Part shown: positions 858-28,027 of the stretch, piece by piece
Numbering within the stretch: the first letter of the stretch is position 1
Layout: every line of letters begins with the position of its first letter
NCBI GenBank assembly: GCA_039800485.1
Contig: JBDLQR010000342.1
Coordinates: 1 to 34,289 of the forward strand
Source: Pseudomonadota bacterium
Lineage (GTDB): Bacteria > Pseudomonadota > Gammaproteobacteria > Ga0077536
Direction of reading: 5' to 3'
DNA length: 34,289 nucleotides
Notes under the pieces: model-generated
Database searches by the model: none
What the model was told of the DNA's origin: nothing
The model's input: only the letters and a program-made list of their open reading frames with translations
Translations under genes and position numbers: made by a program

Positions 858-1511
858 TCAGTGTGTCCCGAAGCCGGGGATCTCGAACCGCTTTTCCACT
901 GTGCGCACCCCCAACCGCAACAGCTGGTAGATACCAAAGTAGAGCAGGCCGGCCGCGAGGTAGATTTCCACCCCGCGCAGGGTGGTGGAAGCCAAGGCCG
1001 TCGCCTGGCGGGTGATCTCCGGGATCCCCACCGTATAGGCGAACGGCGAGTACTTCAGCACGGTGGTGAACTCATTCAGCATGCCGGGCACTGCAAGCCT
1101 CAGCATCTGTGGCAACTCTATGGACACGAGGATCTGCCCGCGCCCCAAGCCCATGGCTTCGGCCGCCACCAGCTCCTGGGGGTCCAGTGACTCCATGGCG
1201 CCCCTGAAAACCTCGCCCAGATAGGCCCCGGCGATCAGGCCAAGACTCAGCATCATCGACAGCAGTGGCGGAACCTTGATCCCGATGGCAGGGAAGCCGA
1301 AGAAAATGATGAACAGCAGTACCAGCACGGGCACTGCGCGGAAGACATAGGTGTAGACCTCCAGCAGCCAGCCCGTGCCGCGAATCTGCAAGCGTCGCAG
1401 TACAACGACGGCCAGGCCTGCGCAGAGGCCTGTCAGCATGCAGGACAGGGTCACAAGCACCGTCTGCCCCACTCCTTGGGCGAGCAGCCAGAGGATCTTC
1501 CCGAAATTCAC
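858..1511 (-). CDS. polar amino-acid ABC transporter permease
   Basis: About 5 TM segments. HisM/GlnP-like N-terminus (LAQGVGQTVLVTLSCML) and EAA-type loop AAEAMGLGRGQILVSIELPQMLRLAVPG. The start codon read from the DNA is GTG. Confidence 0.9.
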   Translation of the reverse strand: MNFGKILWLLAQGVGQTVLVTLSCMLTGLCAGLAVVVLRRLQIRGTGWLLEVYTYVFRAVPVLVLLFIIFFGFPAIGIKVPPLLSMMLSLGLIAGAYLGEVFRGAMESLDPQELVAAEAMGLGRGQILVSIELPQMLRLAVPGMLNEFTTVLKYSPFAYTVGIPEITRQATALASTTLRGVEIYLAAGLLYFGIYQLLRLGVRTVEKRFEIPGFGTH

Positions 1512-1536
1512 GCGGGATGCCGCTGCGCCTGAGTGC

Positions 1537-2280
1537 CTACTTCAGCCAGCGATCGATGATGGCTTGCAACTCGGCAGGCGGCAGCGACTCCAGGTAGGCG
1601 TCAAAGTCAGCCCGCAGTTTTGAATCCTTGGGGAAGGCGAAACCGAAACGGTCAAAGCCCGAAAACACCCAGCTGTCCGTGATCGGAAGCTTCTTGCGAT
1701 GCACCGCGGCCACCGTACCATCGAGGAAGGCCAGATCAAGATTGCCATTCTGCAGGTCGGCGAGAACCTCGTTGTACGAAGGGTAGAGCTTGACCTTGTC
1801 GAGTGTGTAGATGCCTTTGGGCTCAAGTTCGTTCTTGATGAAATCGCTGTAGGCCATTCCGCGCGGATAGCCGATGGAGTATTGCTTCAAATCATCCAGA
1901 CTGGCGATGGTGATACCACGTGCCTGCATGCTGACCAGATTCCAGGTGTTCTCCATGTAGGGCTTGGAGAAGTCCATCACTTCCTTGCGCTTGTCGGTGA
2001 TGGAAATCCCGGAGAAAGCGATATCGGCCTGCCCACCTACCACAGCACCCAGCATGCCTTGCCAGTCGTATGCGGTGAACACCGGCGTGCAGCCGGCTTT
2101 TTTGCAGAAACCGTTGAAGAGATCGAGGTCGATACCGGCCATCTTGCCATTCTCCTCGAACAGATTCGGCGGCGAAGCGGGCGTGACCGCAATACGGATT
2201 TCGGAGGCGGATTGCTGTTGGCCGCAGCCGGCGACGAGCACGATCAGCAATGCACCCAGCAGGGCGAGGAAACGCTTCAT
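1537..2280 (-). CDS. family-3 periplasmic amino-acid-binding lipoprotein (ABC substrate-binding protein)
   Basis: Start refined to ATG at 2280 (MKRFLALLGALLIVLVAGCGQ, lipobox LVAGC) with AAGGAC upstream. Body resembles SBP_bac_3 (IRIAVTPASPP..., ADIAFSGISITDKRKEVMDFSKPY). Confidence 0.85.
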   Translation of the reverse strand: MKRFLALLGALLIVLVAGCGQQQSASEIRIAVTPASPPNLFEENGKMAGIDLDLFNGFCKKAGCTPVFTAYDWQGMLGAVVGGQADIAFSGISITDKRKEVMDFSKPYMENTWNLVSMQARGITIASLDDLKQYSIGYPRGMAYSDFIKNELEPKGIYTLDKVKLYPSYNEVLADLQNGNLDLAFLDGTVAAVHRKKLPITDSWVFSGFDRFGFAFPKDSKLRADFDAYLESLPPAELQAIIDRWLK

Positions 2281-2382
2281 GAAGAGTCCTTGAATCTGGT
2301 TGGAGTGCGTCCCATGAGGGACATCCGGGACCGCGACGGCATTCCCGGCGCCCCGGAGCATAGCAAAGCTCGACGCTCGCAG

Positions 2383-3228
2383 CTAAAGCACTGCGAAGCG
2401 GCGCATCAGGGCATCGCAATGGCGACGGACCAGAGGCGAGACTGGTACACCCCCTGAAGATACGGCGGTGCGTGGCGCGATGGCCGCTACCGCCCTCTGG
2501 GACAACGGCAGTTCCAGAAAGGTGGCGATGTGACCACACTCCAGCTGCGGATCCTCCAGCAGTGATTCATAGCGCACCACCCGGACCTCAGGATGGTTGG
2601 CGAAACCCTGTTCGAAAAACAGCACATTCCGGTAGTACCACATCAGCGCCGCTGCAGAGGCCTCATCAAGGCCGTCTTCAACTGCCTCGCGCAGGACTTC
2701 CTGGGTAGCGTCCGACATGCCTCGACCGCGCCAATCCGAACCTGCCTTGTCTGCGGCCAGCCGGTGGGCCTGACGCACGAAGTTACCGAAGGACGCCAGC
2801 ATGGAGCGCGTGACCTCCTCGTACCCCCTCAGCATCCAGAGCGTTTTTGCAGGCGCATGGCGCTTCATCAGGCCCTCCAGATCCTGCAGTTCGCATAGCG
2901 ACTTGAGCACGAAGACGGGAGCGCGTGACCGCTTCATCAAGGCCTCGATCACGGGCTGGGGACGCATTTCGTAGCGATCAAAGGCCCGCGAATCCGTCTC
3001 ATGGTAGACATCGGTGTCCCAGACGCGATCAAGCACCTGCATCAGCAGATTGGTTCCCGAGCGCTGCACGCCCGCTACAAAGACATGGCGCCGATCGACT
3101 GGCCTCGCGTGCAGCCCATGTCCCACCTGCTTGCACAGGCGGTAGAGCCGGTCGCCGAGTGCCAAGGGCCGATCAGTCCCACCCGTACGCCGGAGCGACT
3201 CAGGCGAGTTCACGGAACGCCTCGACAA
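2383..3228 (-). CDS. sulfotransferase family protein (PF13469-like)
   Basis: PAPS 5'-phosphosulfate-binding loop VFVAGVQRSGTNLLMQVL about 50 aa from the N-terminus. C-terminal VVRYESLLEDPQ...ATFLELP pattern is typical of bacterial sulfotransferases. The track start is TTG at 3228; an alternative GTG lies at 3213. The 5' end overlaps the stop of the GT4 gene. Confidence 0.7.
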   Translation of the reverse strand: MSRRSVNSPESLRRTGGTDRPLALGDRLYRLCKQVGHGLHARPVDRRHVFVAGVQRSGTNLLMQVLDRVWDTDVYHETDSRAFDRYEMRPQPVIEALMKRSRAPVFVLKSLCELQDLEGLMKRHAPAKTLWMLRGYEEVTRSMLASFGNFVRQAHRLAADKAGSDWRGRGMSDATQEVLREAVEDGLDEASAAALMWYYRNVLFFEQGFANHPEVRVVRYESLLEDPQLECGHIATFLELPLSQRAVAAIAPRTAVSSGGVPVSPLVRRHCDALMRRFAVL

Positions 3229-4438
3229 GTGCAGAGATCTTGCGATCCCAGTGGTGTGACTCGGCGTATCGTCGGATCTCTGCCCGGTTCCAGTCTCGCG
3301 CCAGGGCCTCGGCCACGGCGCCCGTCAATGCCGCCTGATCACCAAAAGCCACGATTTTTCCGACCTCCGGGCTGGCCACCACTTCCGAGTTGCCTCCCAC
3401 GTCCGTCGTGATCACCGGCAGGCCGCACGCCATGGCTTCGAGGATGACATTCGCCCAGCCTTCATTGCGGGTGGGCAGCACAAAGACATCCGCCGCAGAC
3501 AGTGGCATGGACAGGTTTTCCGGCGACAAGGCGCCCAGGAAATGCACATGACCGGAGAGTCCGGCGGATGCCGCCTGTGCCTCAAGTTGGGAGCGCCAAT
3601 CACCCTCGGCGCTGGCGCCACCGATGATGAGGTAATGCAGTGAGGGATAACGGGTGCGCAGTGCAGGCATGATCTCCAGCACACGATGGAAGCCTTTGCG
3701 CTCCACGAGGGCCCCGACTGTCACCAGGACATGTGCATCGTCAGGCAGCCCCAGACGGGCCCGGGCTGCCGCGCGGTCCAAGGGCGCGAAGCAGGTCGTG
3801 TCCACACCATTACCCACCACCTGAGTCTGTTGCGCGGGCACACCCTGCTCGCGTGCCAGCGCCTGCAGGGACGCCGAGACTGAAAAGACACAACAGGCCC
3901 GAGTGAGTGCCTTTCGCACCCTGGGCAACAGAGCAGGATCACGGACGTGGCGCACTTCCGTACCCCGCAGCGTGAGCGTGACGGGAACCTTCAACCAACG
4001 ACCCAGCAAGGTGGCTGCGTATCCATCCGGATACGCGAAATGCGCGTCGATCAGGTCGAAGGCAAAGCGCTGGCGCAAGCTGCGCAGTGACCACCAGCAG
4101 GAGATGGCCAGCAACAGCCCATCGAGCCGTTTTGCGATGCCCGGCACACACAGGAAGCGGGGGTGCAAGACCTCGAATCCCTGCTGGACTTCCTTGCGGG
4201 GTGCGGGCGGACGAAAATGCGGCCGGAAGAGGCGTATCAGTCCTTGGAAAGGAAACCAGGGCACGGGCGCCATCACGATGAGCGGCAACTCCCGGCCTAC
4301 CCGGAACATGCGCTCGCGGATGAACAAGCCCGCCTGAGGCTGGCCCGGATGCGGAAACAAGGTGGAAAAGACGAGCAGCCGAGGACGCCTTCCGGAATAT
4401 TCCTCCGACCGCTGAGGGACCGTGCCGTCTGGATTCAC
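3200..4438 (-). CDS. GT4-family (group 1) glycosyltransferase
   Basis: C-terminal GT-B signature PTRNEGWANVILEAMACGLPVITTDVGGNSEVV (E-X7-E). Start refined to GTG at 4438, which forms a GTGA overlap with the upstream deacetylase stop. The 64-aa N-terminal extension in the ORF track overlaps that gene and looks non-coding. Confidence 0.85.
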   Translation of the reverse strand: MNPDGTVPQRSEEYSGRRPRLLVFSTLFPHPGQPQAGLFIRERMFRVGRELPLIVMAPVPWFPFQGLIRLFRPHFRPPAPRKEVQQGFEVLHPRFLCVPGIAKRLDGLLLAISCWWSLRSLRQRFAFDLIDAHFAYPDGYAATLLGRWLKVPVTLTLRGTEVRHVRDPALLPRVRKALTRACCVFSVSASLQALAREQGVPAQQTQVVGNGVDTTCFAPLDRAAARARLGLPDDAHVLVTVGALVERKGFHRVLEIMPALRTRYPSLHYLIIGGASAEGDWRSQLEAQAASAGLSGHVHFLGALSPENLSMPLSAADVFVLPTRNEGWANVILEAMACGLPVITTDVGGNSEVVASPEVGKIVAFGDQAALTGAVAEALARDWNRAEIRRYAESHHWDRKISALVEAFRELA

Positions 4439-5517
4439 GCGCGTCGCCTGTATCGGCTGATGGCGATTACGAGAGCCAGAGCCAGCAACAACACCAGCGG
4501 CCCCAGAGCGACCGTCGCATTCATACCGCCCTCCCCCAGCCGTTCCCACGCGCGCCGGTACGTCAGCCAGAAACCGGTATGTGGCACGAAACTCGTTGCC
4601 GGAGAGCATTCCAGCTCTCCTTTCTGCCACGCAGAGACGAAGCCCCGGGTGCTGCGGGCCGTGAGGTCGGGATGCGCATTTACATGTCGCAGGATTTCCC
4701 TGAACCGCTGGATGATGTGCTCATCCGGCACGCCGTTTCGAGTGAAGCTGAAACTGTGCATCATGATGTTCACGGCACATGCGTTGCGCTCCGCCATCTG
4801 GTCGAGCACCGTACTCAGCTCGTCGAGACTGCTGCTTTCGATATCCAGAAAGCGCGACGATGACCATCCCGGCACGCGCAGCTGCGAGTAGTAGGTCACC
4901 GGCAGCTCGATCACCCCTTTGTGCACGAATACATCGTTCTGCACATGTCCTTCCCGTGCCAGGGGCGACATCACCGCCGGGCTCAGCGAGGCGTCTGCGT
5001 CAATCCCGATCTGGCGCAGGGCGCGCAGGGTGGCGGTATTGGCGAGATACGCGCCCGCCCTGTGCGCAACAATATCCTTCGCGCCCCAGCTCTCGAGCAG
5101 TGACCTGCCCTGCTCGAGAATCTCCCGCTGCTCTGCCTGACCGAAGTGAGACATACCCCTGCGGCCGAACATGGGGTAGGGATGGGTGTGCAGTTGGAGA
5201 TCCTGCTCGGCCTCCAGAATATGCGTGGCAATCTCGCGTAGCGGTGCCTCCCCGTGCAAGGGGAGCTCATACACATTGAGATAGAACGTGGCCGGTGCGT
5301 GTTCCTCGGCCAGGATTTCGAGCATCCTGGGGACACCGTATTCCCCCGTATACCCGGGCAGCCGGCCAAAGATGTCCCGCTCTGGCGTTCTGCCTTGGTA
5401 GGACTCCACATCCACTGTGAACAGGACGGACGTGTCCGCACCGACGATATCGGAGGCAATTGACAGCAAGCATACAGAGGCAAGCCATACGGCCGCGCGC
5501 ACTGTGAGAGATCTCAT
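4435..5517 (-). CDS. polysaccharide deacetylase-like (CE4/NodB-fold) protein with N-terminal signal peptide and C-terminal TM tail
   Basis: Start refined to ATG at 5517 (ATGA overlap with upstream stop). It opens with the signal-like MRSLTVRAAVWLASVCLLSIASDIVGA. It then shows LFTVDVESY...GVPRMLEILAEEHAPATFYLNV...LQLHTHPY, resembling ArnD and XrtA-locus deacetylases. The C-terminus is GEGGMNATVALGPLVLLLALALVIAISRYRRRA. Confidence 0.7.
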   Translation of the reverse strand: MRSLTVRAAVWLASVCLLSIASDIVGADTSVLFTVDVESYQGRTPERDIFGRLPGYTGEYGVPRMLEILAEEHAPATFYLNVYELPLHGEAPLREIATHILEAEQDLQLHTHPYPMFGRRGMSHFGQAEQREILEQGRSLLESWGAKDIVAHRAGAYLANTATLRALRQIGIDADASLSPAVMSPLAREGHVQNDVFVHKGVIELPVTYYSQLRVPGWSSSRFLDIESSSLDELSTVLDQMAERNACAVNIMMHSFSFTRNGVPDEHIIQRFREILRHVNAHPDLTARSTRGFVSAWQKGELECSPATSFVPHTGFWLTYRRAWERLGEGGMNATVALGPLVLLLALALVIAISRYRRRA

Positions 5518-6380
5518 TCCGGCAGCAGGGATTCCCAGCGGGTGCCCCGCCACCGACGCACAAGTTCCGGGTAGTTGGAAATCGCCTCGCAAAGCGGCCT
5601 GTTCTCCTGCTTGAGTGTGGTAGGGGCCAAGGTACGGGGTTCCACTCCCAGATGAGACTGGATCCGTTCGAGGCTTGAGTGCGTATCCCGTGTCAGGTCC
5701 TCATAGGTCAGCTCGAGGAAAGGATGGTGCGCGAAACGCTCCCGGATCAGGGACTGATACCGGAGACGTCGCTCGAAAGTGTGTTCCGCCTTTTCCGGAT
5801 CAATCGGGATCGGCTCCTGTACCCACTGAGCGTCCGGAAGCGACATCCATCTCTGTGCCCGCTGGGCAACTTCCAGGGAGAGAAAATAGGCCAGAAGATC
5901 CTTGCGATGAAGACTGATCACGGCAATATCCTGCTCCGTTGCAAGCCAGTCCCACAGCACTTCCATCCCGGGCTGTCGGTCCAGGTGTTCCGGGAAGATC
6001 TTGAACCCTGCCGCGGCAACCCCTTCGTCATAAGCTTGATAGATGACATCGCGCACGAAAGCGACAGGATGAATATTGCGCCAGGCCTTCCACACGCCAC
6101 CAGTGTCCCAGTCAGGCGCTCTGACCTTGAAGAATATCTTGTTGGGATGCAGACACTCTCCGTAGGTGATGAGTTCCGGGTGACAGGTGAGCGCGCTCTG
6201 CAGCATGTTGGTCCCGGACCTTGCATGCGAAAGCACAATGAACCGTCGATAGTTTCGATTTTGCCCCTTTCGCTCCGGCAACGGACAGAAGTCGGAGTCT
6301 GGCCAAGGCGCGATGTTATTGCCCCCACCAAACAGGTTCCTGATTCTGGCGGCTGATCTCAGCAAGGGGTTTCCGGACAT
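5514..6380 (-). CDS. NodH/Stf0-like sulfotransferase
   Basis: PAPS loop FIVLSHARSGTNMLQSAL, a second motif ISLHRKDLLAYFLSLEVA, and a C-terminal LTYEDL...LGVEP...ISNYPEL pattern shared with the 7501..8346 gene. Start is ATG at 6380 (8 nt after the upstream stop) or ATG at 6401. Confidence 0.75.
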   Translation of the reverse strand: MSGNPLLRSAARIRNLFGGGNNIAPWPDSDFCPLPERKGQNRNYRRFIVLSHARSGTNMLQSALTCHPELITYGECLHPNKIFFKVRAPDWDTGGVWKAWRNIHPVAFVRDVIYQAYDEGVAAAGFKIFPEHLDRQPGMEVLWDWLATEQDIAVISLHRKDLLAYFLSLEVAQRAQRWMSLPDAQWVQEPIPIDPEKAEHTFERRLRYQSLIRERFAHHPFLELTYEDLTRDTHSSLERIQSHLGVEPRTLAPTTLKQENRPLCEAISNYPELVRRWRGTRWESLLPE

Positions 6381-6387
6381 GGCAGCT

Positions 6388-7263
6388 TCAGGCAGGTTCA
6401 TAACCGAGCACCACCAGAAGGTTTTGATGCCGCAGATTGAAGAGTTCCAGCATGCGGGGTGAGAATTCGGTCTCCCATTGTCTTGCAGTCCCTTTCCGGA
6501 CGTGCCTTGCACCGCCCTTCTGCTGATTCTTGAGTGAATGGGCCTCTACGAGTTGCAGCCCGCGCGCAAGCAAATCCGCGCGCAAACCGTAATGTCTGAA
6601 GACTATCTCCATGGCCTCGGCCTCTCTGCCGATGATATCCTCGTAGCGCATCTCGACGATGTGCGGGTTGCGGTAGTTCCAGTCCTTCATCTGCTGAAAC
6701 GCCGGCCCCAGACGCAGCATTTCCAGAATCATGCCGCGCTCCATCGGAAGCGTATTGAGGTACTCGAGATAGGATATGTTGCGGGGTGCGCGAGCCGGAT
6801 CGGACTCTACGTGCTCGGCAAACCATGGGTCCTCCAGGATTGCGCTCCAGTCGAAGGAAGGATCCCGGAACGCCTTTTCTTCTGTCCATAGATGGTAGCG
6901 GTAGCCGGAGACCAGCAGATCCCTGGGGTCACGGATGAAATGACTGCCGCGAAGGTCGGCCATTGCGTCGATACCGGGCACTGGTACGTTGTTGAGGCTG
7001 ATGAAGCGCTTGCCGGCTGTGGTGTGCAGCAGGCGGCAAAACTTCGAGGCATCGCTTTGGCAGTGGGCATAAGAGAAGCCGAACTCCTCTGCAAGTTCGC
7101 GCATGATGCGCTGAAAATAGACTGTCAGGCACTTGTGATAGGAGAAGTGCACCAGCGCCGGGACGGCGAATGGCTCCGGCACCTTGCGTGCAGCAACGGG
7201 TAGAGACCGCTGGCGCATGCGCCCCGGCATCCACGACGTAATATGTTCTGACAGAAACCCCAT
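6388..7263 (-). CDS. Sulfotransfer_1-like (cytosolic-type) sulfotransferase
   Basis: HFIRDPRDLLVSGYRYH (3'-phosphate-binding region) and RHVRKGTARQWETEFS (RKGxxGxW signature). Lys-containing N-terminal loop HFSYHKCLT. Start refined to ATG at 7263, preceded by GGAGGGA; the track start at 7281 is also ATG. Confidence 0.75.
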   Translation of the reverse strand: MGFLSEHITSWMPGRMRQRSLPVAARKVPEPFAVPALVHFSYHKCLTVYFQRIMRELAEEFGFSYAHCQSDASKFCRLLHTTAGKRFISLNNVPVPGIDAMADLRGSHFIRDPRDLLVSGYRYHLWTEEKAFRDPSFDWSAILEDPWFAEHVESDPARAPRNISYLEYLNTLPMERGMILEMLRLGPAFQQMKDWNYRNPHIVEMRYEDIIGREAEAMEIVFRHYGLRADLLARGLQLVEAHSLKNQQKGGARHVRKGTARQWETEFSPRMLELFNLRHQNLLVVLGYEPA

Positions 7264-7500
7264 GACATTCCCTCCGGCCATCGCTTTGGGGACACCCCCC
7301 GCAGGAACCTCGAAGCCCCTGATGATTCGTTGTAGCGGCGCTGCGCCGGCCAGCTTGAACGCACCTCACGCGCCTTTGTGGCCGCCTGCGCCGCTAAACT
7401 CCGGGGCCCGACCGGCCGCTACCGGGGGAACCCGTTCTAACAAGCGGGGAACATCAGTCTCAAAGCCAATGCCGCCCTCGGGGCCGCTCATCGGATTGAA

Positions 7501-8346
7501 ATGAGAAAATTACTGCGCTTGCTTGGTCTGGACGGCGTTCCCGAAGCTCCTGCAGCACCTCCGTCAACGCCGCCAGCCGCAGACGGCGATCTCCAACGCT
7601 GCGTGGTATTCGTCGGGGGGGTGCGCACCGGAACGACTGTCTTTCGCCACATGCTGGGGACGCATCCACGCATCACGGATCGCTTCGAAATCTTCAATTC
7701 GAACACGCCGCATGGCTTCTACCCTTTCTATCGCGACCATCTGAAGCAGCAACCGGACGCCATCTTCCCGGAACAGAATCTCGCCACGTTCGCGCGCTAT
7801 CTGACGCAGCTCAATGCCGCTGATGACCTGTCGCTCGTGGACATCAAGTACGAACATCTGGCGCACCTGCCAGCGCCATGGCGCATGCCCTTTTCTCCGC
7901 CAGCGCTGCTCGATCATGTGCGGGATCTGAATCTGAAAGTGATACACCTGCGGCGCAACCCGTTTCACTCGCTGCTTTCTGACCAGGTGGCAACCCAGAC
8001 CCAACGCTACAAACGCTACCGGGGTGAGGATGTTGCCCCGCCCCCTCCAGAAGTCAGGGTGCGCGTGAATCGGCACAAGCTCGAGGCCGATATGCGCGAG
8101 CGCCGGCAGGTTACCCGCATGGTGGATGACATGATCCCTGAGGCCAGAAGGCTGTCCTTTGATTACGAGAGCATGCTGGATACACAAGGTGCCTTCGACG
8201 CCTCCATGTGCTCAGCGCTCGCGGATTTCCTGGGAGTGGAGAGCCAGTTTGATCGGCAGCCAGGCCTGGAGAAAGTCATCGCACGCCCGCTGTCCGAGGT
8301 GATCGAGAACTATGCCGAGATCGCGGATCTGGAAAGCGCCGAGTGA
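7501..8346 (+). CDS. NodH/Stf0-like sulfotransferase (paralogue type of 5514..6380)
   Basis: PAPS loop VVFVGGVRTGTTVFRHML, second motif IHLRRNPFHSLLSDQVA, and C-terminal FDYESML...LGVES...IENYAEI. Transcribed divergently from the minus-strand operon. Confidence 0.75.
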   Translation: MRKLLRLLGLDGVPEAPAAPPSTPPAADGDLQRCVVFVGGVRTGTTVFRHMLGTHPRITDRFEIFNSNTPHGFYPFYRDHLKQQPDAIFPEQNLATFARYLTQLNAADDLSLVDIKYEHLAHLPAPWRMPFSPPALLDHVRDLNLKVIHLRRNPFHSLLSDQVATQTQRYKRYRGEDVAPPPPEVRVRVNRHKLEADMRERRQVTRMVDDMIPEARRLSFDYESMLDTQGAFDASMCSALADFLGVESQFDRQPGLEKVIARPLSEVIENYAEIADLESAE

Positions 8347-8450: not shown

Positions 8451-9023
8451 ATGCTTTCAACCTTCGTCACGGGCGCGGTGCTCGCGGTGCTCGTGTTCTA
8501 CGTCATCGTGATTTACAACAATCTTGTGAGACTCAAACACAATGTCTCGCAGGCCTGGTCGAACATCGATGTCATCCTGCGCCAGCGCCACGAGGAGCTC
8601 CCCAAACTCGTGGAAACCTGCCGACAGTACATGCAGCATGAACGGGAAGTTCTCGAACGCGTGACCGAGGCCAGAGCTGCCGTCAGCACCGCCCGCACCG
8701 CCGGCAGCGTGGCCGCGCTTGGAACAGCGGAAACGGCCATGCGGGCAGGTCTTGCCAGTCTGTTCGCTGTTGCGGAGAACTACCCCGATCTGAAAGCCGA
8801 TCAGACTTTCCAGCATCTGCAGGCCCGTATCTCGCAGCTGGAGTCCCAGATCGCCGACCGCCGCGAGTACTACAACGATGCAGTGAACCTGAACAACATC
8901 CGCATTGAGCAGTTTCCCGACAATCTGCTGGCTGCCAGATTCGGGTTCGGGCCACGCGAGCTGCTGGCTTTCAGCGAGGCGGAAAAAGCGGATGTCGATC
9001 TCAAGGCCTTGTTTGGTCGCTGA
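8451..9023 (+). CDS. lemA: LemA family membrane protein
   Basis: N-terminal TM followed by YNNLVRLKHNVSQAWSNIDVILRQRHEELPKLVE and ENYPDLKADQTFQHLQ...YYNDAVNLNNIRIEQFP, a classic LemA pattern. GGAGG lies upstream of the ATG. Confidence 0.9.
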   Translation: MLSTFVTGAVLAVLVFYVIVIYNNLVRLKHNVSQAWSNIDVILRQRHEELPKLVETCRQYMQHEREVLERVTEARAAVSTARTAGSVAALGTAETAMRAGLASLFAVAENYPDLKADQTFQHLQARISQLESQIADRREYYNDAVNLNNIRIEQFPDNLLAARFGFGPRELLAFSEAEKADVDLKALFGR

Positions 9024-9037
9024 GCGGAGCGACCCTG

Positions 9038-10015
9038 GTGTGGCTGGAGACACTGGAAGCGGATCTCAGGGCAGCAGATCCGGCAGGCATACAGACTGTC
9101 ATCATCCTGCTGGCCGTGCTCGCGGCCACCATGGCCTGGATGGCGGCCCGCGTATTCTTCCGTACACGCCTCATCGAGGACACTGCGACCTCCACCACCC
9201 GAGGGGCGCATCAGGGCTATGGGGAATTCGAGGGTCGTGCGCGGGGCCGTGAAGACGCGCCAGTCACCGCGCCGCTCTCCGGCCTGCCCTGCTGCTGGTA
9301 TCGCTTCCGGGTGGAGGAGCTCCAGCACCATCGCGGCAGCAATGGGCTCTCCCGCACGCGCTGGCAGGTCATCCAGCGGGCCGAGAGCGATCAGACTTTC
9401 TGGCTGGAGGACTCTACCGGACGGGTAGCGGTCGATCCGGTCGGGGCCGAGATGCATCCTCGCCACCGGGACGTCTGGCAGTCCCGTTCCGTTCTTTCCG
9501 GGATAAACCGGTCCACGCCTTTCTTCAGTGATTTTTTTGCCCATCATCCGGGTAACAGGCGCTACCGCTTCACCGAGGAACGTATCAACCGGAATGACCC
9601 GCTTTATGCGCTTGGCTTTCTCAGCAACCTGGGCAGCCATGTGCCGCAGCCTGATGCGGACGACCACGCCGCCGAACTGCTGCGGGAGTGGAAATCAGAC
9701 CAGCCAGCGCTCATTGCCCGTTTCGATGCGGACCGGGATGGTCGGGTCAGCCTGGCCGAATGGGAAGAAGCCAGACGGGCGGCGCGCACACAGGCCGCGG
9801 CCGCGACTGCGGATGCCGCGGTGACGCAGGCTCCTGCGGAAGGTGTGAACCTGCTGGGCCGCCCGCCGGCGGGCGGACTTCCCTACATCGTTTCCGCATT
9901 CTCACAGGCGGAGTTGCTGCACAAAAAACGCCGGAGGCTGCTGGCTTTCGGGCTGTTGTTTTTCCTCGCTGGCGGCTTGGCGGCCTGGCTGTACCAGATC
10001 CGGTTCGGCGTCTGA
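9038..10015 (+). CDS. GIDE-domain-like membrane protein with one EF-hand loop
   Basis: GTG start 8 nt after GGAG. N-terminal TM, then LIEDTATSTTRGAHQGYGEFEGRA...PLSGLPCCWYRFRVEE (GIDE-like core). Canonical EF-hand loop DADRDGRVSLAE at 9725..9760. C-terminal TM LLAFGLLFFLAGGLAAWLY. Confidence 0.65.
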   Translation: MWLETLEADLRAADPAGIQTVIILLAVLAATMAWMAARVFFRTRLIEDTATSTTRGAHQGYGEFEGRARGREDAPVTAPLSGLPCCWYRFRVEELQHHRGSNGLSRTRWQVIQRAESDQTFWLEDSTGRVAVDPVGAEMHPRHRDVWQSRSVLSGINRSTPFFSDFFAHHPGNRRYRFTEERINRNDPLYALGFLSNLGSHVPQPDADDHAAELLREWKSDQPALIARFDADRDGRVSLAEWEEARRAARTQAAAATADAAVTQAPAEGVNLLGRPPAGGLPYIVSAFSQAELLHKKRRRLLAFGLLFFLAGGLAAWLYQIRFGV

Positions 10016-10105
10016 TTGTGGCGCCACGCCGCCTGCTCTCGTGCCCGTTGGGTGCTTGCATCACACCTGCTACCCTGCGGCAGTCTTCAAGCCAGCGGGG
10101 ATCCG

Positions 10106-11851
10106 ATGTCAGTCAAACATTTCGTCAAGTACGAACCTCAGGAAAAGCCCCCTCACGCGCTGGCTGCCGGTCTGGGGGCGCAGATAGTCGTCCTCATCGT
10201 GACGGGCGTCATGGTCACTCCTTTGGTCGTGGCCCGCTCTGCCGGTCTTGATGCCGCGAGTTCCGCCTGGCTCGTCTTCGCAGCGCTTATCGCGGCAGGA
10301 CTCTCCACCTGGCTGCAGATCAGCCGTATTGGCATCATCGGGGGCGGCTTCGTTCTCTTCGTGGGCTCGAACGTAGCTTTCGTGTCGGTCTCCGTGAGCG
10401 CGATAGGCGCAGGCGGCTTGCCGCTCCTGGCAACCCTCGTTTGCGCGGCGTCACTTGCCACCTTCGTGTTCACGGCCAAGATGGGCGCCCTGCGCCGCGT
10501 GCTGACGCCTGCAGTGGGCGGTACGGTACTCATGCTGATGGCGCTCAGCGTGGCGCCCGTGGTGTGGAACATGTTCAAGAAAGTGCCACCTGAATTTGCA
10601 GGCACCCATGTTCCCGGGATTATTCTCCTCTCCACCCTTCTGCCCATCGTGGTGGTGTCGCTGTTCGCCCGGGACATGCTGCGCCTGTGGGCGCCGCTGA
10701 TGGGTGTAGTGGTGGGCTCGACCGTCGCTTATCAGTATGGCCTCGTGGATCTCGCGCCCATTGCCGCTGCGCCCTGGATAGGTCTTCCCCTGGGTGAATG
10801 GCCCGGGCTCTCGCTGACCCTGGACGCGAAATTCTGGGCTTTGCTGCCGGCCTTTATACTGATCACGATGGTGGGATGTATCGAGACTTATGCCGACGGT
10901 CTGGCAGTTCAACGCACGTCATTCCGTGAACCTCGTCCTATAGACTTCCGCTCCGTACAGGGGGCGATCAATGCCGATGGCGTTGGCAGCTTCATCGCCG
11001 GACTGCTGGGCACGGTACCCAACACGGTGTATTCCATGAGCGTAGGCATCATGGAACTCACCAGAGTGGCTGCTCGTCGGGTAGGGGTGTGGGGTGGCTT
11101 GTTCCTGATTCTGCTCGCCTTTTCACCCAAGATCGGCGCACTGGTCGCCGCTCTGCCGAGCCCGGTTGCCGGTGGATATCTGTTGATGGTGCTCGTGTTG
11201 CTGTTTGGTCACGGCGTACGCATGGTGACCGAAGAGCCTCTGAGCTTCGAAGCCGGGGTGGCGGTATGTCTTGGTTTCTGGGTGGGTGTAGGCTTCCAGG
11301 GCGGATTTCTCTTCAACGAGCTGATGCCCGACTGGGCCAAGCTGTTTCTCTCCAACGGCACGACTTCTGGTGGCCTCACCGCCATCATCCTGATGGGCTT
11401 CATCTCGCTGAAGACGCGAACGCGCGACAAGCTGAGCGTACCGCTGGAGATGGGTGCCCTCACGCAACTGAAAACCCTGGTGCAGGGCTTCTGCACGCGC
11501 CTCGGCTGGGACGAGCAGGCCGCCAATCGCCTGATGCTCGTGGCAGAAGAATCCCTGCTTTTCCTGCTCGAGAACCAGTCGAAAGGCGGGGATGCCGCCG
11601 CAAGTGCGAAAACGCAATTGCACGTCCGCATCAGAGAGGTCGAGCACGAGGCGGAGCTCGAGTACATCTCCGCGCCGGCAAGCGTGAACGTGGAGGCCGC
11701 GTTGATTTCGGTGCCGGCGGAGAGCGAGCACGAGGCGTCGCTGGAGGAAGAATTGTCACTGCGGCTGCTGCGCGGAATGACGCGGGAACTGAAGCATCTC
11801 CAGTACCACGGTACGGATTATCTGCTGATGCGGGTGGACAGCAGCGCCTGA
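10106..11851 (+). CDS. NCS2 (xanthine/uracil/vitamin C permease) family transporter with soluble C-terminal extension
   Basis: Start refined to ATG at 10106 (MSVKHF...). NCS2-like motifs GLGAQIVVLIVTGVMVTPLVV, CIETYADGLAV and INADGVGSFIAGLLGTVPNTVYSMSVGIMELTRVAARRVG. The last roughly 145 aa have no TM segments. Confidence 0.85.
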   Translation: MSVKHFVKYEPQEKPPHALAAGLGAQIVVLIVTGVMVTPLVVARSAGLDAASSAWLVFAALIAAGLSTWLQISRIGIIGGGFVLFVGSNVAFVSVSVSAIGAGGLPLLATLVCAASLATFVFTAKMGALRRVLTPAVGGTVLMLMALSVAPVVWNMFKKVPPEFAGTHVPGIILLSTLLPIVVVSLFARDMLRLWAPLMGVVVGSTVAYQYGLVDLAPIAAAPWIGLPLGEWPGLSLTLDAKFWALLPAFILITMVGCIETYADGLAVQRTSFREPRPIDFRSVQGAINADGVGSFIAGLLGTVPNTVYSMSVGIMELTRVAARRVGVWGGLFLILLAFSPKIGALVAALPSPVAGGYLLMVLVLLFGHGVRMVTEEPLSFEAGVAVCLGFWVGVGFQGGFLFNELMPDWAKLFLSNGTTSGGLTAIILMGFISLKTRTRDKLSVPLEMGALTQLKTLVQGFCTRLGWDEQAANRLMLVAEESLLFLLENQSKGGDAAASAKTQLHVRIREVEHEAELEYISAPASVNVEAALISVPAESEHEASLEEELSLRLLRGMTRELKHLQYHGTDYLLMRVDSSA

Positions 11852-26853: not shown

Positions 26854-26887
26854 TGTCAATCTAAGTTGACGTTAATTCCGTTTGACA
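26854..26887. promoter_or_regulatory. candidate tandem PpsR/CrtJ operators overlapping divergent -35 hexamers
   Basis: TGTCAATCTAAGTTGACG (26854..26871) and CGTTAATTCCGTTTGACA (26870..26887). Each is one mismatch from TGT-N12-ACA. The outer hexamers TGTCAA and TTGACA are inverted repeats and read as TTGACA -35 boxes towards bchF and ppaA respectively. Confidence 0.4.
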
Positions 26888-26961
26888 TGCGCGGGTGTCG
26901 CCCGGATGATCGCAACTCAGGTATCGGAGCCCCGCGGGTTCGTGGCAGAATCGAACCGTCT

Positions 26962-26982
26962 CACCGCGAAAATTTCGCGGTG
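26962..26982. repeat. perfect 21-bp palindrome in the bchF/ppaA intergenic region
   Basis: CACCGCGAAA-A-TTTCGCGGTG has 10-nt perfect arms. It is preceded by the hairpin GGTTCG-N9-CGAACC (26937..26957). It lies about 100 nt upstream of the ppaA ATG. Confidence 0.5.
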
Positions 26983-27085
26983 CTGCAACATGAACAAGAT
27001 GGAATCGAGTCAAGCACCTGTACCGAAGAAACCCATGACCCGCATCCAAACCTGAACTCCTTAAAGGACAGGGAGATATAAGCCC

Positions 27086-28027
27086 ATGACCATGTCCAAC
27101 AAGATCGGTGCCCAGAACACGCGCAGGCGGAGCCGAGAAAAGCCCGGTGCGCAGGATGGTCCGGACACCTCCCCTGACTTGGTCGAGACAGGTTTCGAAA
27201 GCCTCCTCCGCACGATTGAAGCAGACATCATCCCCAGGCTGCTTCTGGCACATCAAACCATCGCCCCGCTGAACGAACAGGCCCCAACGACCGATCTGCC
27301 AACTGTCACCACGGCTGATGTCGACAGGCTCACCCGTCTTACGCAGAGCAGGGACTTTGCGGCAGTCTGGAAGGAAGTGGACGGACAGCGCGTACGGGGC
27401 GTGCCGCTGGAGGCCGTTTTCCTCGATCTCCTCGCGCCGGTTGCCCGCCGCCTCGGCAGACTGTGGGAAGACGACTTGCTGGACTTCACCGGCGTCACCA
27501 TCGCGCTCATGCGCCTGCAACAGGTGATGCGCGAACTGGCCCCCGCCTTCAGCGCGCAGTGCGCGTTGCGCCCGCGCCAGACACCGCTGCGCATCCTCGT
27601 GACCACCGCACCCGGAGAGCAGCATCGCTTCGGGGTCCTGATGGTGGCTGAATTCTTCCGTCGCGCTGGCTGGGAGGTCAGGGAAGACACCGTCAACAGT
27701 GACGCGGCCCTGCGCCAACTGCTGGCCGAGTCACATTTCGACCTGCTCGGACTCTCCCTGGGCTCACAGACCGGCCTCGATGCGCTGTCATGGACTATTC
27801 AGGCCAGTCGCGATGCCACTCTCAACCGGGACCTTGGTATCATGGTCGGCGGCCCTGCGTTCGCGGACAATCCCGCTCACGTGGCACGCGTCGGCGCAGA
27901 CCTGACGGCCTCGGATGCACGTTCGGCAGTCGCCAATGCTGAAAATTTCATCAAGAACCTGGAAGCGCGCCGGATGACGCACGTGTGGCCCGGCGATTTG
28001 AACTCTGCAACGCTCAGACCGCACTGA
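27086..28027 (+). CDS. ppaA: cobalamin-binding antirepressor PpaA/AerR
   Basis: B12-binding-2 helical region (LAPVARRLGRLWEDDLLDFTGVTIALMRLQ). B12-binding Rossmann domain with LRILVTTAPGEQHRFGVLMVAEFFRRAGWEV (E-x-H-x-x-G). Sits immediately upstream of ppsR. Confidence 0.85.
   Translation: MTMSNKIGAQNTRRRSREKPGAQDGPDTSPDLVETGFESLLRTIEADIIPRLLLAHQTIAPLNEQAPTTDLPTVTTADVDRLTRLTQSRDFAAVWKEVDGQRVRGVPLEAVFLDLLAPVARRLGRLWEDDLLDFTGVTIALMRLQQVMRELAPAFSAQCALRPRQTPLRILVTTAPGEQHRFGVLMVAEFFRRAGWEVREDTVNSDAALRQLLAESHFDLLGLSLGSQTGLDALSWTIQASRDATLNRDLGIMVGGPAFADNPAHVARVGADLTASDARSAVANAENFIKNLEARRMTHVWPGDLNSATLRPH

Follow-up and report, generated by a model that had tools for sequence, protein, structure and literature searches.

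The question raised by a six-gene cluster at positions 2,383 to 8,346 of contig JBDLQR010000342.1 (assembly GCA_039800485.1, a Pseudomonadota bacterium of the gammaproteobacterial lineage Ga0077536) is what a cell could do with four sulfotransferases encoded next to a single glycosyltransferase and a single deacetylase. The window, that is, the whole stretch of DNA that was analysed, comprises 34,289 nucleotides of this contig. With a probability of roughly 0.55, and judging from sequence comparison, the six genes (A to F in Table 1) would form an accessory module decorating a polysaccharide of the cell surface, be it an exopolysaccharide (EPS), a capsule or an O-antigen, whose priming, polymerisation and export genes would be located elsewhere in the genome. 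Decoration of a polymer is favoured because other bacteria carry orthologues of C, B and A within complete loci for polysaccharides, of the XrtA/PEP-CTERM, Wzx/Wzy and ABC-type O-antigen kinds.

Gene coordinates and overlaps were taken directly from the sequence and are given as window positions. Five of the genes are on the minus strand, E being the first in the operon, and all four junctions between them are stop/start overlaps. E and D share 14 nt (the stop codon of E, at 6388-6390, is within D), D and C overlap in ATGA at 5514-5517, C and B in GTGA at 4435-4438, and B and A again share 14 nt (the stop codon of B, at 3200-3202, is within A). In a 98% identical metagenomic contig (L120), an independent gene caller returned identical lengths (291, 295, 360, 412, 276 and 281 aa) and identical overlaps. 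A promoter scan of the region between E and F, presumed to drive the E operon and F, showed neither a sigma-70 consensus nor promoter-like sites; terminator-like sites were no commoner than in shuffled sequence, and the Rfam scan gave zero matches. The compact operon, with its four unrelated sulfotransferases, one GT4 enzyme and one deacetylase, could be suited to joint expression. Regarding the sulfotransferases, the island holds four in 6 kb, a density about 55-fold higher than that found around 80 loci with homologues of C (~15 sulfotransferase open reading frames (ORFs) per 1.28 Mb).

Table 1. Features of the window, with positions counted from its first nucleotide.
Feature	Position	Strand	Length	Remarks
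Gene A, sulfotransferase	2383-3213	minus	276 aa	GTG start; alternative TTG at 3228
Gene B, GT4 glycosyltransferase	3200-4438	minus	412 aa	GTG start
Gene C, CE4/NodB-fold deacetylase	4435-5517	minus	360 aa	
Gene D, NodH-like sulfotransferase	5514-6401	minus	295 aa	alternative ATG at 6380
Gene E, Sulfotransfer_1-type sulfotransferase	6388-7263	minus	291 aa	GGAGGG 6 nt upstream of ATG; alternative ATG at 7281
E-F divergent intergenic region	7264-7500		237 bp	presumed promoters for both units
Gene F, PF13469 sulfotransferase	7501-8346	plus, divergent	281 aa	
LemA and GIDE-domain genes	8451-10015			
Xanthine/uracil-family permease gene	10016-11851		611 aa	
Purple-bacterial photosynthesis gene cluster	11854-34289			bchO-like hydrolase, puhE (DUF3623), acsF, puhC/B/A, lhaA, bchM/L/H/B/N/F, ppsR-like PAS-HTH regulator, bchG, second PucC-family gene, bchP, pufC
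ORF between bchF and the ppsR-like regulator	26861-27718	minus	285 aa	

The four candidate sulfotransferases all score above the Pfam gathering cut-offs, which are 27 and 22 bits for the two families concerned. A matches both families (PF13469, 6.9e-10, 40.0 bits; PF00685, 2e-9, 37.6 bits), D and F match PF13469 (8e-10 with 39.8 bits and 7.8e-8 with 33.3 bits, respectively) and E matches PF00685 (1.3e-7, 31.7 bits). The 5'-phosphosulfate-binding (PSB) loop and the 3'-phosphate-binding (PB) motif are present in A (RSGTN at residue 51; R129-x7-S137), in D (RSGTN at 61; R166-x8-S175) and in F (RTGTT at 42; R151-x8-S160). E carries HFSYHKCLT, which includes the HKCLT loop, together with RDPRDLxxSGY (RDPRDLLVS in E) and HxRxGxxxQW; these are conserved across 25 homologues, and RDPRD..S..Y is invariant in the clade. 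By profile score, 5'-phosphosulfate loop and R...S 3'-phosphate motif, A, D, E and F are therefore assigned to the superfamily dependent on 3'-phosphoadenosine-5'-phosphosulfate (PAPS), as PAPS-type sulfotransferases of four unrelated types. They are not duplicates of one another, since pairwise blastp detected only a marginal similarity between D and F (5e-4). None of them has a signal peptide or a transmembrane segment, and all four are therefore predicted to be cytoplasmic.

By sequence, D is NodH-like and not of the Stf0 type. It reached 16.2 bits against cut-offs of 22 (PF09037) and 400 (NF047724, trehalose 2-sulfotransferase), and A, E and F gave no match to either model. In the PDB, D is related to 9vki, named 'LPS sulfotransferase NodH' (1.8e-8, aligned over the PSB and PB regions); the same sequence search found nothing for A or F. 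D is rare, with 9 relatives among 5.8 billion proteins, F has 729 relatives at E<=1e-3 among 1.84 billion representatives, and the E clade is sizeable and well conserved (449 matches). The AlphaFold2 model of E, with a predicted local distance difference test (pLDDT) score of 88, found its best Foldseek matches among PAP(S)-bound cytosolic SULTs (~2e-8, with TM-scores of only 0.41-0.48), hydroxysteroid sulfotransferases and retinol dehydratase among them. The NCBIfam equivalogs left A, C, E and F unmatched, and the matches of B and D all stayed under threshold. The nearest relative of D on a long contig outside the lineage (P0008, 38% identity; loci L008-L011, at ~7.7-10.7 kb in L008) is divergent from a gene for a 554-aa GT1-family glycosyltransferase and small unannotated ORFs, near csrA, alaS and recA, which is an unrelated context.

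B is, by sequence, a GT4 glycosyltransferase (retaining, GT-B fold). It matches the two-domain profile (PF00534, 8e-39, 133 bits; PF13439, 55 bits) and carries NEGWANVILE, read as the E-x7-E motif. Its best NCBIfam matches are TuaC, BshA, stp2 and MshA, all far under the cut-offs and at most about one third of the equivalog values (114 bits against 409 for stp2), and its PDB relatives are BshA, MshA, PimB and WaaG.

Concerning C, the Pfam score is narrowly above the cut-off (PF01522, 1.2e-5, 25.7 bits versus 23.1). Its AlphaFold2 model (pLDDT 95) matched 3rxz, a putative mycobacterial polysaccharide deacetylase (1.5e-11), ArnD (4.9e-10), HP0310 and many CE4 enzymes and esterases. Residues D36 (TVDVE), H110/H112 (LHTHP), H152, R153 (HRAG.Y) and H254 (MHS) are invariant in 39 homologues, and D36, H110/H112, R153 and H254 could correspond to CE4 motifs 1, 2, 3 and 5, the H-T-H spacing of the second being atypical for CE4. 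With this putative assignment, the fold and the Asp, His, Arg and His motifs place C among the CE4/NodB-homology enzymes. Sequence comparison also sets it in a family of its own, which has no curated NCBIfam model and conserves the segment TGxWLTYxRAWER..GWKN. Furthermore, C has a Sec-type signal peptide with an S-I-A site (LLSIA followed by SD) and a C-terminal transmembrane helix with an RYRRRA poly-basic tail; following the positive-inside rule, the catalytic domain would therefore be periplasmic and membrane-anchored. C is thus predicted to be an exported, membrane-anchored, CE4-fold de-N-acetylase-like enzyme.

Two predicted topologies occur in the C family. In the first one, the signal peptide and the poly-basic tail after the C-terminal helix place the domain in the periplasm (the window, L013, L016, L017, L019-L022, L024 and L035). 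In the second one (L014/L025, L029, L031, L033, L034, L036 and L037) both features are missing, and these proteins would be tail-anchored with a presumably cytoplasmic domain (a Hydrogenophilales member, P0084, is one that lacks the signal peptide); a sulfotransferase is encoded within 10 kb in 7/7 of these loci and directly adjacent in three. If this topology is correct, such a cytoplasmic de-N-acetylase with a PAPS sulfotransferase as its neighbour would be, formally, the bacterial counterpart of the animal N-deacetylase/N-sulfotransferase (NDST).

Every other large ORF of the window was scanned for families. These genes encode an amino-acid ABC transporter, LemA, GIDE, a permease of the xanthine/uracil family and the photosynthesis gene cluster, and no second glycosyltransferase, Wzx/Wzy, Wza/Wzc, ABC exporter, priming transferase or cysC/cysDN was found among them. 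A classical assembly locus, with its priming transferase, flippase/polymerase or ABC exporter and PCP/OPX proteins, is absent from the window, as are the exosortase A/EpsI, stp1-3, amidotransferase 1, FemAB-like, TIGR03006 and O-ligase genes of an XrtA/PEP-CTERM locus. Most of what a preliminary description had read from the bare sequence is borne out by these results. Its five coupled minus-strand genes with a divergent sixth have exact coordinates, as do its ATGA and GTGA overlaps, and the E/D overlap is now added as a fourth. The four sulfotransferases of about three sequence types that it had named passed the profile thresholds, where they might have failed, and carry PAPS motifs, and the predicted structure of E agrees with PAP(S)-bound SULTs. 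The single GT4, the exported deacetylase and the lack of polymerisation, export, priming and PAPS-synthesis genes also stand. On the other hand, its short list of characterised bacterial sulfated glycoconjugates was incomplete, as it left out the sulfated capsular polysaccharides of Vibrio and Cobetia and the glycosaminoglycan-like EPS of Pontiella.

The evidence for a role in polysaccharide tailoring comes from other genomes. Scanning GTDB species representatives with C returned 80 loci (best match 53% identical), and the family is widespread. C and a B-type GT4 are adjacent or one gene apart in at least 13 loci, which span Nitrospirota, Omnitrophota, Poribacteria, Clostridia, Tectomicrobia, Abditibacteriales and Gammaproteobacteria; specific B-type orthologues score 150-500 bits, versus 60-90 bits for generic GT4s. 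The 92 neighbours of these pairs are mostly GT4 enzymes (23), methyltransferases (14), AsnB-type amidotransferases (7), Wzx (5) and Wzy_C (4), and GT2s and UDP-GlcNAc 2-epimerase are also found. A sulfotransferase is encoded within 10 kb of C in 9/23 of the loci with the best C matches versus 3/57 of the remaining ones (Fisher p = 4e-4), these counts being lower bounds because the iterated sulfotransferase profile may overlook divergent members.

In metagenome-assembled genomes (MAGs) of Hydrogenophilales, Betaproteobacteria and Rhodanobacteraceae the sulfotransferase gene directly adjoins the C homologue, and in the first of them it follows C immediately. In Methylocaldum, the neighbours of C are a GT4, a Wzy_C protein and an O-antigen-type locus of the Wzm/Wzt kind; in Inmirania thermothiophila, two sulfotransferases and a sulfatase accompany it, together with Wzx, Wzy, GT2s, AsnB and a pyruvyl transferase. 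As for E, one homologue is in a capsule/LPS-type sugar locus and another is an orphan. The C-type deacetylase and the B-type GT4, accompanied by sulfotransferases in other genomes, may therefore constitute an uncharacterised and widespread polysaccharide-tailoring pair.

The most informative case is a Chromatiaceae MAG (L021/L095), where the gene order is C (42% identity), an stp3 GT4, a B orthologue (59%) and an A orthologue (45%, with the stop/start overlap kept). The other genes of that locus all exceed the XrtA/PEP-CTERM equivalog cut-offs (TIGR03006, 03019, 03087, 03109, 03088, 03108, 04063 and 03097) and encode the TIGR03006 deacetylase, a FemAB-like protein, stp1, XrtA with EpsI, stp2, amidotransferase 1, stp3 and an O-ligase-like protein. 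In that organism, as the gene arrangement makes evident, a known EPS pathway has been supplemented with C, B and A. Among the loci compared, L095 is the only one with the XrtA gene set around C, B and A orthologues.

The full six-gene set was found in two sets of close relatives. L120 has island proteins of 97-99% identity and flanks of 99.6-100%, and L005/L099 (L005 being the 228-kb contig ERZ27247984 k141_2446798) keeps the same flanks, including the photosynthesis cluster, with island proteins of 66-78% identity against 96% for LemA, 94% for the permease and 90% for the substrate-binding protein (SBP). In a third relative (L100, metagenome contig Ga0194123_10006619; LemA 92%, SBP 90% identity) the island is reduced to positions 942-3422, with only D (56%) and B (75%) intact, C-terminal remnants of F (35 residues) and A (40 residues), and no E or C.

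The ratio of nonsynonymous to synonymous substitutions (dN/dS) of the six genes is 0.11-0.32 against L120 and 0.07-0.18 against L099, where dS is saturated. Since these values are low and the genes are intact, the six genes are regarded as functional and as being under purifying selection. The island genes diverge faster than their flanks (66-78% versus 90-96% identity) and their presence varies among close relatives, both of which are, at the level of sequence comparison, hallmarks of variable surface-glycan tailoring genes. Moreover, the full island and the D and B pair of L100 offer a natural comparison for assigning a modification to each enzyme. Recent horizontal acquisition of the island was also considered and is unsupported: there are no flanking repeats, tRNA or integrase, the GC content at third codon positions of the six genes (0.67-0.74) is near that of the flanks (0.73-0.83), and total GC falls only modestly across D and E.

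If the six genes decorate a polymer, the following scheme could be proposed. In the cytoplasm, B would add a branch or terminal sugar, probably an alpha-linked N-acetylhexosamine (HexNAc), to a lipid-linked repeat unit. Two observations make HexNAc plausible: B has a de-N-acetylase as its partner, and BshA and MshA, which use UDP-GlcNAc, are among the GT4 relatives of B. Then, A, D, E and F might O-sulfate different hydroxyls or sugars of this intermediate with cytoplasmic PAPS. After the flip to the periplasm, the membrane-anchored C may remove N-acetyl groups near the membrane, so that the product would be a strongly anionic and possibly zwitterionic glycan. The donor sugar, the acceptor, the order of the steps and the O-sulfation sites in this scheme are inferred. 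Few bacterial carbohydrate sulfotransferases have a known acceptor, and sulfated polysaccharides are sought as heparin- or carrageenan-like materials.

How the island relates to known systems depends on which of its components are compared. As in XrtA/PEP-CTERM loci, it shares C, B and A with the canonical locus of the Chromatiaceae MAG, and AsnB-type amidotransferases recur near C in other genomes; unlike them, the window lacks genes for an exosortase, EpsI, stp1-3, an amidotransferase and an O-ligase, and B is well below the stp2 cut-off. The synechan locus of Synechocystis PCC 6803 (xss) also clusters PAPS-type sulfotransferases of distinct subfamilies with glycosyltransferases and directs a sulfated extracellular polysaccharide (PMC8205485). 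That locus has two sulfotransferases, eight glycosyltransferases, Wzx, Wzy, PCP and the XssQRS regulators (PMC8205485), whereas the window has four sulfotransferases, one glycosyltransferase and a deacetylase that is exported, and lacks genes for polymerisation or regulation. As the window lacks the assembly genes that define the synechan-type and the XrtA loci, the island belongs to neither. What is new here is a sulfotransferase-dense tailoring operon free of assembly genes, a variant of the sulfotransferase-bearing EPS loci and an arrangement that is unusual but not unprecedented.

Among individual enzymes, D resembles the rhizobial NodH/LpsS/KpsS and mycobacterial Stf0 sulfotransferases in its alignment to the NodH-named 9vki, and D and F share the R-x-G variant of the PSB loop, which is typical of PF13469 (PMC11625862). 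D nevertheless falls under the Stf0 cut-offs, and no nod, trehalose-lipid or kps genes are nearby. C has in common with PgaB, IcaB, PelA and ArnD the NodB/CE4 fold, the D/H/H/R/H catalytic-type residues and the exported location, and ArnD, its second-best structural match, acts on an undecaprenyl-phosphate-linked sugar. It differs from them in its family segment, its C-terminal membrane anchor and its atypical H-T-H motif, and there are no poly-N-acetylglucosamine, Pel or Arn partner genes. The combination of a CE4-fold deacetylase with PAPS sulfotransferases is also reminiscent of the animal heparan-sulfate NDST, whose deacetylase domain (NDST1) is matched by the C model at 2.7e-6; this match is no better than those to generic CE4 enzymes. 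Coupled N-deacetylation and N-sulfation of the NDST kind was rejected for the window genes, being topologically implausible because C is periplasmic and the sulfotransferases are cytoplasmic, as predicted by sequence rules.

Several observations weigh against polymer decoration. The data for this organism consist of a single 34-kb contig, so the polymer locus cannot be shown. The sulfotransferase to glycosyltransferase ratio of 4:1 is far from that of any characterised EPS locus, synechan with its 2:8 included (PMC8205485). Orthologues inside polymer loci are known only for A, B and C, the contexts of D and F being uninformative and E having one only. The model of E is nearest to small-molecule cytosolic SULTs and not to carbohydrate sulfotransferases, the GT4 similarity of B is equally good to glycolipid and thiol-conjugate synthases, and the donor and acceptor proposed for B are putative.

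A rival explanation is that the cluster by itself makes a small amino-sugar glycoconjugate carrying several sulfates, such as a sulfated hexosamine-glycolipid, in which case B would glycosylate a membrane lipid or metabolite, the sulfotransferases would sulfate it up to four times and C would de-N-acetylate it at the outer leaflet. A product of this kind would agree with the 4:1 ratio, the absence of polymerase, flippase, priming and export genes from the window, the minimal D and B pair kept by L100 and the resemblance of E to small-molecule SULTs. Glycosyltransferases with lipid or small-molecule acceptors (BshA, MshA, GlcNAc-PG synthase and PimA/PimB) are among the best matches of B, and the mycothiol, bacillithiol and GPI-anchor pathways likewise proceed from a GT4 step to a deacetylase. 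However, the scores of B to the lipid and thiol enzymes are generic for GT4, at no more than about a third of equivalog cut-offs, the true orthologues of B, C and A are in multi-glycosyltransferase Wzx/Wzy or XrtA loci, and no lipid-synthesis or flippase gene accompanies the set. The preliminary description had left the choice between a small glycoconjugate and polymer decoration undecided; the orthologues in polysaccharide loci now favour decoration, and the small glycoconjugate is unlikely, although still a live rival.

A bolder form of the same idea is that the cluster alone specifies an undescribed, up to four-fold sulfated and de-N-acetylated amino-sugar glycoconjugate, either a glycolipid or a short lipid-linked glycan, in a bacteriochlorophyll-containing proteobacterium or, in a weaker version, that it turns an ordinary EPS into a heparin-like, highly sulfated and partly free-amine polymer. 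From the sequence comparisons this appears quite doubtful. If either version were true, it would add four specificities to the carbohydrate sulfotransferases of bacteria and, at the same time, one family to the deacetylases.

Polymer decoration by an active module was also weighed against the possibility that the island is the decaying remnant of a former polysaccharide locus with little present function. The loss of E and C and the fragments of F and A in L100, together with the faster divergence relative to flanking genes, would be consistent with decay. Nevertheless, six intact ORFs in three sampled lineages (the window, L120 and L005/L099), the preservation of the four overlaps and dN/dS values of 0.07-0.32 make it very improbable.

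The least probable explanation is the one advanced more speculatively in the preliminary description, a functional tie to the adjacent photosynthesis cluster through sulfates or glycosides of carotenoids or other isoprenoids. The island is indeed only 3.5 kb from the bchO-like hydrolase gene, beside puhE at the edge of that cluster, the E model weakly resembles hydroxysteroid sulfotransferases and retinol dehydratase, and no gene is named in the report of carotenoid sulfation by Erythrobacter extracts (PMC6627997), but the LemA, GIDE and permease genes, all unrelated, intervene, no crt genes are present in the window, and carotenoid chemistry offers no role for a CE4 deacetylase that is exported. 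As the linkage was seen in no genomes other than those of close relatives, which share the gene order of the entire region, it is not independent evidence. Orthologues of A, B, C and E are found elsewhere in sugar-polymer loci of non-phototrophs; in lineages such as Methylocaldum, Inmirania, Planctomycetota and Nitrospirota the homologous modules are always beside sugar-polymer genes. The finding has, then, no bearing on photosynthesis or carotenoid chemistry.

Finally, some neighbouring genes of the window deserve mention. Between the island and the photosynthesis cluster stands a LemA gene followed, 15 bp on, by a gene for a GIDE-domain membrane protein with an EF-hand-like segment, and this pair is conserved in all relatives. 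The xanthine/uracil-family permease has ~180 extra C-terminal residues past its Pfam domain (53-429 of 611), a segment with no family match, and a 581-aa form of it is conserved in a relative with 94% identity. Within the photosynthesis cluster, Pfam gives no match for the 285-aa ORF that separates bchF from the ppsR-like regulator, and the position of this ORF is conserved.

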